Shown: positions 3,188 to 52,075 of the stretch, piece by piece
Layout of the letters: every line of letters begins with the position of its first letter
How positions within the stretch are numbered: the first letter of the stretch is position 1
Assembly (NCBI GenBank): GCA_051313645.2
Contig: JBNRSN020000013.1
Coordinates: 16,802,001 to 16,866,000 of the forward strand
DNA from: Centroscyllium fabricii
Taxonomy: Eukaryota
DNA: 64,000 nucleotides
Reading direction: 5' to 3'
The notes under the pieces: generated by a model
Told to the model about the DNA's origin: nothing
What the model saw: only the letters and a program-made list of their open reading frames with translations
Database searches by the model: none
Position numbers and translations under genes: made by a program

Positions 3188-3285
3188 CAGCGAAACAATT
3201 TAATTTGGGAAACTCTGACAGGACATGCATGGAGACTTATGATTATTAATACAGTATATTATATAGATATATAATTAAAATGAAA

Positions 3286-3715
3286 AAGAAACCTGCATTT
3301 ATATAGCACCTTTCACAACTTCAGGACTTCTCCAAAGCACCACTTTTTTTTAAAGTGGAGTCTCTGTTGTAATGCAGGAAATGCATCAGCTAATTTGTGC
3401 ACAGCAAGCTCCCACAAACAGCAATGTGATAATGACCAGATCATCTGTTTTAGTGATGCTGGTTGAGGGATAAATATTGACCAGGACACCGGGGATAACC
3501 CTCCTGCTCTTCTTCGAAATAGTGCCCTGGGATCTTTCATGGCCACCTGAGGGGGCAGGCGGTTTAACATCTCCTCCAAAAGCCGGCACCTCCAACAGTG
3601 CAGCACTCCTTCAGTACTGCATTAGTGTGTCAGCCTGGAGTTTGTACTCAGTTCTCTGGAGTGGGACTTGAACCCACACCTTAAGAGAGTGCTTACCAAG
3701 TGAGACTTGGCTGAC
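3286..3715 (-). mobile_element. SacSINE1-like DeuSINE
   Basis: Reverse complement of the full copy at 37562-38030; L2-type tail (CTGCATTTATATAGCACCTTT on +). Confidence 0.85.
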
Positions 3716-14938: not shown

Positions 14939-16069
14939 ATAATTGATTGCTCTTGTCTGCTTTTCTCTTAAACTGAAGTCACCTTTATATAAAGTCAAGC
15001 AGCCAGTGACCTGAGCAAACCTACTCTGTCCAAATAGGAAGTGAACATTCCAGATAGATCACATTATTATCGAAGGGAGAGAAAAAAATCAAGCAAAGCG
15101 CAGTGATGAGCAAATTAACTGCTGTTATTTAGAGTCATTCTACCCCAATCAATCCATTTCACTTTCTCAGCTTTACTGATTGTAGGTCAAGAAAAATAAA
15201 ACTGAAAAATTATATCGAAATAATCAAATACACAAAAAAAAGGGAGAACGTGTCTACGCTTTGCACTAAAACCTGGTTCCAAAATAGCAAGAGATTGGAA
15301 AATAAACTTGCCCTCAGGTGCTGCAAGAAAAACACATGCCATTGCATCTCCCAGCTGAACCAATGCTAATACGGAAATGAGGAAGTGGACTAAATGGTTG
15401 TGGCTTCCTGCTGACAGAATCGTTTACTTTCATGGTCTAACAGGAGCTATTGAGAGCCACCTATCATGTGGCAGTAGCCGGCATTGAGACTGAGCTAGCA
15501 GGAGCAGGATGGAATGCAAAGCCACGTCCAGCTCCACGCACCCTCACGGACAGCCCTTCATAAAGCGGGCACTCACGGGTTGCTTTTATTAGAAGCCCGG
15601 CAGCTCCCAGACGCATTTGTACTATGGGGTAAAAAGCACGCGGCGAAGAAGATGCAGAAAGAAAGGATGATTGGAAACTGGCCGGGATGTCTGCAGAAGG
15701 GTGCATGGTTTCCACCCAGCCCGAAAGGGTGTCTTAGTGGTTTGTCCGTGTTTACGATTGACCCGGATTCTAGGTAGGAAATGTCAGGTTCCAGGCCAGA
15801 TCAATCGTCAAGGCAACCAGTCGGTAGGGTCGCCAGTTCTGGTTGGATATATTCCTGGAGGTTTCTTCACATGACCTCCCGTCTCTAATCGTCCCACCCC
15901 CACGCTCCTGCCATTGGTCGCCAGACATGTCTGTCCTCGTAGGGCACCGCCTTCCGACACCAATTTGAAAGCAAACAGGCTCTAATTACCTGACTGGATG
16001 CTGCTTGACCGTCAGTCAAACAGCCTTTTTATTCCAGCTCCAATATTTTTATAACTAATAAATAAAATA

Positions 16070-16772
16070 AGAAAGACTTGCATTTATCTAGTGCCTTTCA
16101 CGACCTCAAGACGTCCCAATGCACTTTACAGACAATGAAGCACTTTTGAAGTGTAGTCACTGTTGTAATGTGGGAAACGCAGCAGCCAATTTACGCACAG
16201 CAAGCTCCCACAAACAGCAATGTGATAATGACCAGATAATCTGTTTTAATGATGTCCGTTAAGGAATAAATATTGACAAGGACACCCGGGATAGCTCCCC
16301 TTCGGAATAGTGCCATGGGATATTTTATGTCCACCTGAGAGCACAGACGGGGCCTGGGTTTAACGTCTCATCCGAAAGACAGCACTTCCAACAGGGCAGC
16401 ACTCCCTCAGTACTGCACTACCCTGTTCCTGGGACTAGGGACAGGGCCACTGGCAAGGCTTGGAAGCTAAGCAGAGCCAGGCCTGGTTAGTACTTGGATG
16501 GGAGACCTCCAGGGAATACCAGGTGCAGAAGGTCACGAAAGGAGCCCCGGGGAGGGGCGGTTGGCTGAAGATTGTCGGAATGATGGAAAGATGGAATGGC
16601 GGCGCGCACAGACGCAGCGGCTTTGCTGGACTCTTGGGAGCTTGCAAGATCACATTTCGTTGTTCATGTACTTGTACATTGTATAATGACAATAAAGTTG
16701 AATTATTATTATTATTATTACTGGCCTAGATTGTGTGCTTAAGTCTCTGAAGTGGGACTTGCGCCCACAACC
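16070..16772 (-). mobile_element. SacSINE1-like DeuSINE, split by a nested SINE
   Basis: Deu domain (CGTCTCATCCGAAAGACAGCAC on +); the head resumes after 16720. Confidence 0.88.
16421..16720 (+). mobile_element. 5S rRNA-derived SINE (SINE3-type) with Rex1/Babar-like tail
   Basis: 16462-16532 matches the 3' half of 5S rRNA including the internal control region; tail AATGACAATAAAGTTGAA(TTA)n resembles the Rex1 tails at 19790 and 52033. Confidence 0.8.
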
Positions 16773-17800: not shown

Positions 17801-17894
17801 AATTCTACAGGACTGTCGCTTTACTCAGAGTCCCAAGAGCCTTCATCTGTATCTCTGTTGCTACTTGCGTCCCTGTGCATAATTTCTTTATCTT

Positions 17895-19078
17895 AATTCA
17901 ATTCAATTCAATTCAATTCAATTCAAGTTTTATTCTCATTGCAGAGTACTAGTACAATACGAGACAAAGACTCGACTCTCCCGAGAGTAGTGTAAACAAA
18001 ATAAATAAATTACATAAATAAATTGCATACAGTAAAGTTCATTATCAGGCGTGCAGGTACCGGAGTTTCTTTTTAGAGTTCAGGAGGCTGACAGCCCTGG
18101 GGAAGAAGCTGTTCTGAAATCTAGTCGTGCGGGTGCAAATTGCTCTGTAGCGTCTCCCGGAGGGCAGAGGGGCGAACAGACTGTGGCTGGGGTGTGTGGG
18201 GTCTTTTATAATGTTCATAGACCTCCGTAAGCAGCATTTGAGGTAGATGCTTTCCACTGACGGTAACTGTGTACCGGTAATTCGTTGGGCAGTTTTGACT
18301 ACCCGCTGCAGGGTTTTCCGGTCCGAGATAGTGCAATTACCATACCAGACATTGATGCAGCTTGTCAGTATGCTTTCTATTGTGCAGCGGTAGAAGTTGG
18401 AGAGGATGCCGGATGCCAGCCTGGCTTTCTTCAGCTTCCTAAGGAAGTACAGGCGCTGTTGGGCCTTCTTAACCAGAGAGGAGGTGTTTAGTGACCAGGA
18501 GAGATCTTCCGAGATGTGGACCCCGAGGAACTTGAAGCTGGACACCCTTTCCACCTCAGCCCCTTGGATGAAGATGGGGGTGTGTCTTCTGCTTCCAGTC
18601 CTCCGGAAGTCCACTATGATCTCCTTCGTTTTCTTGGTGTTCAGTGCCAGGTTGTTGTCGGCACACCAACCCACAAGGCGCTGGATCTCATCCCCGTAGG
18701 CTGACTCGTCGTTGTTGGTGATCTGGCCAACCACCGTGGTGTCATCCGCGAACTTGATGATCGTGTTGGAGCCATAGACAGCCGCACAGTCGTGAGTGAA
18801 GAGGGAGTAGAGGAGGGGGCTGAGCACACAACCTTGTGGGGCCCCCGTGTTCAGGGTAAGGGGGGTGGAGGTGAGGTTGCCTAACTTCACAGACTGTGGT
18901 CTGTTGGTTAGGAAGTCCAGGGTCCAGTTGCAGAGGGAGGTGTTCAGGCCGAGGGTGAGGAGTTTGGTAGACAATTTGCTGGGGACGATGGTGTTGAATG
19001 CTGAGCTGTAGTCAATAAACAGCATTCTGATATATGTATCTTTGCTATCCAGGTGGTTTAGTGCAGAGTGAAGAGCCG
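17895..19078 (-). mobile_element. Rex1/Babar LINE, 5'-truncated
   Basis: (TTGAA)n tail on the element strand; open RT frame 18045-19025. Confidence 0.95.
18045..19025 (-). CDS. Rex1/Babar reverse transcriptase, C-terminal part
   Basis: [39 protein letters not shown] motifs. Confidence 0.9.
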
Positions 19079-19423: not shown

Positions 19424-19820
19424 ACCAGCGGGTAGTCAAAACTGCCCAATGAATTACCGGTACACAGCTACTGTCAATGGAAAGCATCTACCTCAAACGC
19501 TGCTTACGGAGGTCTCAGAACATTATTAAAGACCCCACACACCCCAGCCACAGTCTGTTCGCCCCCCTGCCCTCCGGGAGACGCTACAGAGCAATTCGCA
19601 CCCGCACGACTAGATTTCAGAACAGCTTCTTCCCCAGGGCTGTCAGCCTCCTGAACTCTAAAAAGAAACTCCGGTACCTGCATGCCTGATAATGTACTTT
19701 ACTGTATGCAATTTGCATGTAATTTATTTATTTGCACTACTCTCGGGAGAGTCGAGTCTTCGTCTCGTTGTATTGTACTAGTACTCTGCAATGACAATAA
19801 AACTTGAATTGAATTGAATT
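19424..19820 (+). mobile_element. Rex1/Babar 3' fragment
   Basis: Near-identical to the reverse complement of about 17910-18308; (TTGAA)n tail. Confidence 0.93.
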
Positions 19821-20008
19821 AATCCCACTCCCCTGTTCATTCCCCATCGCCCTGCAAAACTTTCCTTTTTAAGTGTGTATCCAATTCCCTTTTAAAAGTT
19901 ACTATTGAATCTGCTTCCACCACCCTCTGAGTCAGTACATTCCAGATCACAACAACTCGCTGTGTAAAAACATTCTCCCAATCTCCCCCCTGGCTGTTTT
20001 GCCAAGTG

Positions 20009-37561: not shown

Positions 37562-38030
37562 GTGTCAGTTGTGGCTCAGTTGGTAGCACACTTGTCTCTG
37601 AGTCAGAAGGTGGTGGGTTCAAATCTCACTCCAGGGACTTGAGCACATTAAGCTGGGTTGACACTCCAGCACAGTACTGAGGGAGCGCTGCACTGTTGGA
37701 GGGGCCGTCTTTCGGATGAGACACTAAACTTAGGCCCCGTCTGCTCTCTCAGGTGGATGTAAAAGATCCCATGGCACTATTTCGAAGAAGAGCAGGGGAG
37801 TTATCATCAGTGCCCTGGCCAATGTTTATCCCTCAACTAACATAACAAAAACAGATGATCTGGTCATTATCACATTGCTGTTTGTGGGAGCTTGCTGTGC
37901 ACAAATTGGCTGCTGCGTTTCCCACATTACAACAGTGACTACACTCCAAAAGTACTTCATTGGTTGTAAAGCGCTTTGGGACACCCGGTGGTTGTGAAAG
38001 GCGCTATATAAATGCAAGTTTTTCTTGCTT
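37562..38030 (+). mobile_element. Full-length SacSINE1-like DeuSINE
   Basis: A box TGGCTCAGTTGG, B box GGTTCAAATC, Deu domain GCCGTCTTTCGGATGAGAC...AAAGATCCCATGGCAC, L2-type tail GAAAGGCGCTATATAAATGCAAG. Confidence 0.92.
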
Positions 38031-38098
38031 TCTTTCAACGGCACTTGGGCTACGATGATCGGCTTGGGGAGTCGGGGGGGCCAGTGAAGGAAAGTTAG

Positions 38099-50935: not shown

Positions 50936-51388
50936 TCTTATATCACATTCGATCCTCTTAGCCAACAGGAAAAGGAGACTTTAAACCCATCAGGATTTGA
51001 ACCCAGATCCTAGAGTGAAAAGCGTCTAACCCTCTGAGCCACCCAAGTTTCTTGCAGACATTTTTTTGCAAATGACTTTTTTTCAAGTTACACTGGAAAA
51101 TGAATAAACCATGCAACAATTCAACACACGATAAATCTGCACAGAATAATCAGGCAAAACATGTATTTGCACACTGCTAGCTAAAGTTTCTCAGGTGGAA
51201 TTACTTGGCAAGCAGTATGGAACACCCAATACCATTTTACATGACATATCAAATCAAGGCAAGTTTGACAGAAAATGATTCAAGTGGGAAAAAAATTCCA
51301 GACGAGGTCCATATATAGACTGGGCAAGATTCTTTAGGGACAATATTAACCCTACCCACTCAGCGAAACTGGGCGGGAAGGCAGTTAA

Positions 51389-52075
51389 AAGCAGAAGACA
51401 CACCCCCATCTTCATCCAAGGGGCCGAGGTGGAAAGGGTGTCCAGCTTCAAGTTCCTCGGGGTCCACATCTTGGAAGACCTCTCCTGGTCACTAAACACC
51501 TCCTCTCTGATAAAGAAGGCCCAACAGCACCTGTATTTCCTAAGGAAGCTGAAAAATGCCATGCTGACATCCGGCATCCTCACCAACTTCTACCGCTGCA
51601 CAATCGAAAGCATACTGACAAGCTGCATCACAGTCTGGTATGGAAACTGCACCATCTTGGACCGGAAGGCCCTGCAGCGGGTAGTCAAAACTGCCCAACG
51701 AATCACCGGCACCCAGCTTCCATCAATTGAATGCACCTACCTCAAACGCTGCCTACGGAGGTCTCTGAACATTATTAAAGACCCCACACACCCCAGCCAC
51801 AGTCTGTTCGCCCCCCTGCCCTCCGGGAGATGCTACAGATCAATTCGCACCCGCACAACCAGATTCAAGAACAGCTTCTTCCCCAGGGCTGTCAGCCTCC
51901 TGAACTCTAACAAAAAACTCCAGTATCTGCACACCTGAAATGTACTTTATTGTATGCAATTGTATGTAACTTATTTGCACCACTCTCGGGAGCGGCGAGT
52001 CTTCATTTCGTTGTATTGTACTAGTACTCTGCAATGACAATAAAATTGAATTGAATTGAATTGATTTGAATTGAA
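51389..52075 (+). mobile_element. Rex1/Babar 3' fragment
   Basis: ORF 51429..51938 nearly identical to the C-terminus of 18045..19025; (TTGAA)n tail. Confidence 0.93.

Follow-up and report, generated by a model that had tools for sequence, protein, structure and literature searches.

The question raised by this locus is what kind of element interrupts an older SINE at positions 16420–16720 (forward strand) of the window, that is, the whole 64-kb stretch of Centroscyllium fabricii DNA analysed here, and which machinery could have copied it. The original prediction described a 300-bp insert splitting a DeuSINE. An older SINE is indeed split, with its 5' part at 16058–16419 and its 3' part at 16721–16770 (both forward), and two more long copies of it lie in the window (3271–3624 and 37672–38035, 77–84% identical to the 5' part), but the 5' end of the insert had to be moved to 16420. 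This host is presumably a Deu-type SINE (DeuSINE). At the insertion site, a duplication of no more than 2–3 nt was observed, and about 7 nt of the host are missing in comparison with its two other copies. No tRNA was found in the 64-kb window, and no Rfam family exceeded its cut-off there; a match to SMAD5-AS1 (E=0.48) was discarded as chance.

The insert belongs to a real, young and dispersed SINE family, of which the window holds one of more than 13,000 copies. Exact-pattern searches of the 7.2-Gb genome returned 13,111 matches to the tail of the family and 9,763 to its head, and none to the reversed control patterns; these counts are lower bounds, and some of the matches may be assembly duplicates. 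When the window SINE was used in a DNA search, 842 candidates were obtained in the genome, and all 40 that were scored showed 99–100% identity over 297–300 nt, with unrelated flanks in every one of the 30 loci fetched. The first 30 loci chosen by the exact tail were all the SINE (two of them as 85-nt stubs), and among 59 aligned copies picked by their tail, 48 begin no more than 12 nt from the 5' end. Many copies sharing the 5' boundary and the tail had been set beforehand as the test of the original prediction; because thousands of dispersed copies do share them, a one-off chimera is ruled out. Of 101 copies, 6 have flanking direct repeats of at least 6 nt (control 1%) and 77 lack even 4-nt ones, so that there is no regular target-site duplication. 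The definition in the available part of SINEBase (PMC3531059) calls for a short interspersed element in at least 100 copies, in which a stretch of 60 nt is at least 60% identical to a tRNA, 5S or 7SL RNA and the body is unlike that of a pseudogene; the element is 301 bp long, has the 13,111 exact tails and the unrelated flanks just described, and shows both the required 5S likeness and such a body.

Four subfamilies were distinguished among 111 aligned copies by the loop in the 5S-derived part: GTGA (49 copies), GAGA (27), GTAA (9) and GCGA (8). The window copy belongs to the GAGA subfamily, which is the youngest, its best matches lying within 1% of the window copy. Pairwise divergence was 5.5% for GTGA (22 copies), 2.9% for GTAA (6), 1.7% for GCGA (4) and 7.1% for a class with a deletion (11). 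Outside the source assembly, 20 of 24 listed sequencing runs, from 10 studies, contain the stretch or part of it, and six organism labels contain 60–100% of the SINE words, two of these rows possibly being the source itself. Run X20, with fewer than five SINE words, was rejected as evidence of expression. Two rearranged copies were also seen: in L114, short inverted repeats enclose about 25 nt of the tail that lie in reverse orientation at their original position, and in L112 a SINE stub is followed by an inverted tail piece.

The claim that the insert carries the 3' half of 5S rRNA with the boxes of its control region was borne out. Positions 16459–16532 (forward) correspond to nt 44–117 of the 5S gene of this same genome (L064), with 69 of 74 positions identical (93%), and over nt 50–97 the identity is 45/48, so that the internal control region is retained. 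Upstream of this part the likeness ends, since only 12 of the 43 first nucleotides of the 5S gene are identical in the leader region of the SINE, and none of the 149 5S matches outside true 5S loci begins before nt 43. From textbook box positions, the A box, the intermediate element and the C box presumably lie at about 16465–16512. The family has the 5S-derived head with internal control region that characterises SINE3, its older subfamilies differing at one to three places of the C box. The Rfam 5S model (RF00001) matched the head with E=1.7e-4 and 32.6 bits, which is below its gathering score of 38. Among the 5S-bearing loci that were fetched (L061–L080) there are two types of 5S rDNA spacer, with L066 and L072 differing upstream from the rest, as well as lone 5S copies with unrelated flanks.

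In place of the missing 5S sequence is a leader, which was previously described as 41 nt long, non-5S and forming a hairpin. A hairpin of 11 bp (two of them G-U) with a 4-nt loop is predicted at 16421–16446 (forward), where folding, 9,763 exact copies and the snap-back junctions described below coincide, but the leader measures 39 nt (16420–16458). Its remainder (16447–16458, forward) is predicted to form a two-helix arm with the adjoining 5S-derived strand, on which the MFE and centroid structures agree. The head of 116 nt as a whole, with the terminal hairpin, this arm and the 5S 3' domain in its predicted structure, folds at z=-3.9, and the 42-nt leader alone at z=-1.8, 11 of 200 shuffles being as good. 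Of 56 full-length copies, 47 have a purine immediately before the hairpin, and the identity of this base depends on the subfamily, A:G being 19:2 in GAGA and GTAA copies and 6:20 in GTGA copies (Fisher p=5e-6). The base is therefore templated, and the element starts at 16420 (forward), with an A that is the likely Pol III start. From this start to the GGAAG anchor there are 42 nt in the SINE vs 46 in the 5S gene, and the interior of the element contains only two TTT and no T4. Both the purine start and the lack of an internal T4 fit a start of Pol III that is likely set by an internal type 1 promoter. In 5S genes the promoter lies within the gene, and transcription begins about 45 nt upstream of it irrespective of the sequence at the start; Sakonju and Brown reportedly found in 1980 that the first ~50 nt of 5S can be replaced.

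In the 5S-derived part, all four subfamily loops stay within the GNRA pattern. Fifteen of the 111 copies have lost 10 nt across the stem of this loop, and they fall on four or more haplotype backgrounds, a pattern that skipping of an RNA hairpin by the enzyme would produce; a constraint by protein binding on the C box could be an alternative cause of the conserved GNRA loops. A lower substitution rate in the leader hairpin (0.7% vs 2%) was dropped as evidence, many loci having been chosen by the hairpin pattern itself. At the site corresponding to 16655–16659 of the window, decay of the CpG has converted TTTCG to TTTTG in 19 of 81 copies. The resulting run of T lies before the tail and may act as a Pol III terminator, which would disable such copies as sources.

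The body that follows the head had been described as unique and CpG-containing. Its CpG content is high (observed/expected 0.92 vs 0.50 for the window), but its last 31 nt are the 5' end of a Rex1-type LINE, which leaves only about 63 nt unexplained. This linker (16533–16595, forward) gave no significant match outside SINE copies, and for neither leader nor linker was a source found in 1.25 Mb of fetched loci. Short matches to a GC-rich Rex1 family, described below, had been noticed by eye and were rejected as an origin (p 0.03–0.95 over its 14 copies, uncorrected). The last bases of the linker may be a duplicated copy of the first bases of the LINE. As predicted, a Deu domain, the central domain of the DeuSINEs (SINE3, AmnSINE1, OS-SINE1 and SacSINE1), is absent: this domain is about 130 nt long according to Table 1 of PMC5499810, the 63-nt linker leaves no room for it, and comparison with the host SINE copies in the window gave no match.

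By sequence comparison, the LINE-derived part of the SINE starts at 16596, rather than at about 16655. Positions 16596–16626 (forward) correspond to the very beginning of a Rex1-type LINE, from the ATG of its single ORF. This end was first met as a 30-nt match in L141, 2.6 kb upstream of the reverse-transcriptase frame, that is, at the start of the LINE. In 30 5' ends of the LINE lineage that we call A, nothing is common upstream of an A-rich ATG, and from the ATG on the column majority agrees with the SINE at 29 of 31 positions. In lineage B the identity is 86–97% over 21–31 nt in all 20 copies. A pattern search for the SINE variant of this block with a different continuation gave 79 matches in the genome, of which 30 were fetched; 12 were altered SINEs, one was a lineage-B start, and 17 belonged to a non-coding family whose block majority is identical to the SINE at 31/31 positions.

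The element ends in the 3' end of a Rex1-type LINE (16622–16702, forward), followed by a (TTA)6 terminal repeat (16703–16720, forward) that varies from 2 to 13 units among 101 copies. The likeness of this tail to Rex1 LINEs of the window, which had suggested the relationship, holds (75% over 83 nt, E=2e-7), but the window copies are not the closest donor. They belong to lineage A and are all 5'-truncated: one at 51279–52065 (forward) ends in (TTGAA)n, carries PF09004 (E=1.7e-17) and has a tail 73% identical to that of the SINE, one at 19426–19823 (forward) has a tail identity of 68%, and a third, at 17890–18594 (reverse), came from comparison within the window and was absent from the original prediction. 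Tail identity to the SINE ranges over 68–76% in lineage A, 70–76% in the non-coding family, 73–79% in B and 82–92% (mean 87%) in lineage C, the last matching over its final 71 nt in 20 of 20 copies; RT coding sequence precedes it in several of these. Lineage C is the nearest tail donor found. TTTGC stands both at the end of the 5' block and, in the lineage-C 3' end, at the point where the SINE tail begins; in the SINE the two pieces share this motif (16622–16626, forward), which is the expected mark of an internal deletion and, by sequence comparison, the likely deletion joint. The SINE is thus likely a 5S head joined to a bipartite Rex1-type body, made of a 31-nt 5' end and a 3' end of about 80 nt. 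A LINE 5' part in the middle together with a LINE 3' end is the arrangement of the bipartite bodies of Kojima (2018), whose donors are RTE or Vingi; the donor here is a LINE with RT and PF09004.

No LINE with the exact tail or a (TTA)n end was present among 60 tail-picked loci (30 + 30). A pattern joining the tail to a TTGAA repeat gave 13 matches, six of them SINE copies and seven LINE-type ends. Because relatives of the SINE end in TTGAA, TCTTA, TTGTA or TTGA repeats, the 3' repeat unit is not fixed. As to a free 110-nt remnant, 177 pattern matches were obtained and all 20 that were fetched were whole SINEs, a pattern that remnants with another start would escape. A stem-loop in the tail was rejected, its fold being no better than shuffles (z=-0.4).

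The donor LINE is a single-ORF element, about 3.35 kb long in lineage B, with its ORF opening at the first ATG of the element. Within the ORF, lineage C is 86% identical to B and 77% to A. The domains recognised were RT and PF09004, whereas the endonuclease pieces went undetected by Pfam. A single ORF, no ORF1, an RT and tandem 3' repeats of 5–7 nt are the features of Rex1/Babar elements (PMC4635592, PMC6274825, PMC13343379), all Rex1 being reported without ORF1 (PMC13343379) and 5-nt tandem 3' repeats having been described for them (PMC4635592); the donor LINE has this same architecture. The motifs under the published Rex1 (RTX1) primers are present in the donor protein at 6/7 and 4/7 residues, 573 nt apart, compared with a product of ~550 bp. 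As DNA, the primers themselves matched no better than background (5–8/21 and 8–10/24 mismatches at best). The best 120 listed homologues of the donor protein come from fish, frog and unnamed sources, with 50–73% identity and the same domain make-up, and none of these 120 is named Rex1. Judging from the architecture and the protein motifs under the primers, the donor LINEs are likely Rex1.

Some further features of these LINEs were observed. The RT region of L141 (4801–5970) is up to 72–73% identical to unnamed and eel proteins and 60–70% to many bony-fish proteins, which would fit the horizontal transfer reported for Rex1. The same full-length copy contains an insert of about 690 bp with terminal inverted repeats (L141, 1557–2248), MITE-like by eye, for which a 75% match exists in L142. 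In L224 (1497–2300), a lineage-B 5' end with a duplicated N-terminal repeat of about 50 codons is followed directly by an inverted lineage-A 3' end.

No intact Rex1 was recovered: the longest open frame was 779 aa among 150 PF09004 matches (partly within a foreign insert) and 675 aa among 20 copies of lineage B. Full-length lineage C was likewise not obtained, since eight upstream stretches were 5'-truncated and a follow-up search gave B-like relatives at 78–90%. The sampled LINE copies differ pairwise by 6.5% (A), 6.1% (B) and 6.9% (C), in samples that are small and biased to old queries (40–150 of 853–78,250 candidates scored per search). Because these copies are 6–7% diverged and the younger SINE subfamilies at most 1.7–2.9%, the present LINE partner was not found in the samples.

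The non-coding copies constitute a second bipartite Rex1-type family in this genome, with the same 5' block and a Rex1-type end. Both ends are present in 14 copies of 407–894 bp (L213, L215, L217, L222, L223, L225, L228, L229, L231, L232, L235, L236, L239 and L242, each from locus position ~1497 in element orientation). Their middle consists of GC- and CpG-rich tandem repeats with units of about 15–30 nt that differ between copies, and their 3' repeat units are varied. No Pol III head was seen in any of the 14.

At the 5' junctions, a copy of the element's own head, inverted or direct, lies just upstream in 9 of the 107 copies that have a 5' end (control 22/2,000). A fold-back pattern gave 195 matches in the genome; of the 30 fetched, 17 proved to be genuine fold-backs, their arms reaching up to 20 nt, and the other 13 were loop-variant copies on the other strand, which were removed from the count. 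When scaled, this corresponds to ~110 fold-backs, roughly 1% of heads, vs 4.4 expected, and the arm carries the subfamily base of its own copy in 16 of the 17. These junctions indicate that the hairpin end of the cDNA primes itself in about 1% of insertions, as a by-product and not as the main route. Snap-back junctions are known for R2 (PMC11331408).

Taken together, we consider it quite probable that this is a young, high-copy 5S SINE with likely Rex1 ends, likely transcribed by Pol III and likely copied by Rex1 in trans. In the proposed origin, a Rex1 RNA would have lost its interior at the common TTTGC during reverse transcription, and the remnant of ~110 nt would have been joined to a 5'-truncated piece of 5S. 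Unrelated DNA could then have become the leader, because the internal 5S promoter fixes the start upstream regardless of sequence. The predicted structure of this leader, a terminal hairpin together with renewed pairing to the 5S strand that had lost its partner, would shield the end of the RNA. Reverse transcription would be primed at the (TTA)n by Rex1 protein bound to the 3' end and would in most cases extend as far as the 5' end. Much more tentatively, the first ~31 nt of Rex1 may act in cis as a signal required by the Rex1 protein on every RNA that it copies; they are nearly invariant across lineages whose ORFs differ by 14–23%, and two unrelated non-coding families of this genome have retained them.

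Other origins were weighed against this one. That the copies are repeated 5S/LINE template-switch chimeras or 5S pseudogenes, and not a self-propagating SINE, might be suggested by the 93% identity of the 5S part to the real gene; it is refuted because leader, linker and joints are the same in thousands of copies and because the subfamilies are nested, with diagnostic changes that 5S genes lack, and it has practically no chance of being right. A mosaic deserves more attention, in which the 5' piece was shared with the non-coding family and the tail was swapped in from lineage C, with two donors and no single deletion. The 5' piece is identical at 31/31 positions to that family, whose own tail matches only at 70–76% vs 82–92% for lineage C; the SINE and the B-like relatives of C disagree at two to three places of the 5' piece, and tail exchange is common according to the available part of PMC5786205. 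The two pieces nevertheless meet exactly at the TTTGC present in both the 5' block end and the C 3' end, as a single deletion would leave them, and, no full-length C copy having been recovered, the C 5' end may equal that of the SINE. We therefore regard the mosaic as a possible but rather unlikely origin.

Although built from Rex1 parts, the element might now be mobilised by another LINE (L2 or CR1) or through relaxed recognition. The absence of an intact Rex1 ORF in the samples, the lower divergence of the young SINE subfamilies compared with the sampled Rex1 copies, and the difference between the (TTA)n of the SINE and the (TTGAA)n of the LINE all speak for this. The samples, however, were chosen by likeness to old queries and cover few of the candidates, the Rex1 tail is whole in young SINE copies, and related elements carry varied repeat units, which makes such a change of partner improbable. 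Finally, there is some chance, well short of even, that the family already has a name in Repbase or Dfam, with its bipartite structure noted or not, since six organism labels contain the SINE, some with data from 2016–2018, and these databases contain many families absent from papers. On the other side, no paper describing this SINE family was found in the literature searched (Repbase, Dfam and most subscription papers lay outside its scope), and Rex1 is mentioned nowhere in the accessible text and supplement of the Repbase-wide LINE-SINE comparison of 2018 (PMC5786205).

Several known elements are built in a similar way. CoeSINE5 (coelacanth), SINE-1_Pmo (python), HaSE3 (moth) and Ped-1 (springhare) also combine a 5S head with 5' and 3' parts of one LINE clade, in their case RTE, and a short tandem 3' repeat, and the first bases of 5S are also replaced in CoeSINE5, which matches from nt 18, and in SINE-1_Pmo, from nt 29 (available part of PMC5786205). 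In contrast to these, the donor here is Rex1-type, the 5' piece consists of the initial 31 nt of the LINE and includes the ATG of the ORF, where theirs is an inner UTR piece, and a leader with a predicted hairpin takes the place of all 5S sequence up to nt 43. OS-SINE1 of salmonids (5S, Deu, RSg-1) and SINE3/AmnSINE1 also combine a 5S head with a LINE tail, in the case of OS-SINE1 likewise in a fish (PMC3747384, as far as available). Unlike them, the present family carries the 5' end of a LINE, has no common body with them and, with its 63-nt linker, has no room for Deu. RSg-1 may be Rex1-like and, if so, a 5S head with a Rex1-type tail would not be new in itself. A Rex1-derived 3' end is likewise found in SINE2-5_NV of the sea anemone, whose partner is Rex1-24_NV, but its head is from tRNA and no Rex1 5' part is reported for it in the accessible part of PMC3747384. 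The shark SINEs covered in the available part of PMC5499810 are tRNA-headed, and the SINE3 partners given in that of Kojima 2020 (PMC7245038) are CR1-group, I and RTE LINEs. By the criteria that can be tested, the family is likely a member of SINE3 that would work like the 5S SINEs with a bipartite RTE body, built on what is likely Rex1.

A new SINE family is in itself routine. According to the accessible text of Kojima 2018 (PMC5786205), however, only RTE and Vingi have given 5' parts to SINE bodies, and bipartite non-autonomous LINEs, in which only the LINE ends are kept, as in the 3' third of the SINE and in the GC-rich family, derive only from RTE, Ingi, Vingi and R2, Rex1 not being among these four. 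The likely Rex1 ends described here would add a third LINE clade to the former and a fifth to those spawning two-ended non-autonomous copies. The lack of ORF1 in Rex1 would point to a testable reason why only some LINEs give rise to such copies. To our knowledge, RTE, Vingi, Ingi and R2 mostly lack ORF1; if the proposed reading is true, Rex1 together with these four would make "two-ended parasites" the rule for LINEs without ORF1. The classic 5S deletion experiment would then have been repeated by nature in the head, where a foreign leader re-evolved a 5S-like fold. The 110-nt remnant would serve as a natural minimal map of what the little-studied and often horizontally transferred Rex1 enzyme recognises, and the thousands of near-identical copies in several related species would be useful as insertion markers.
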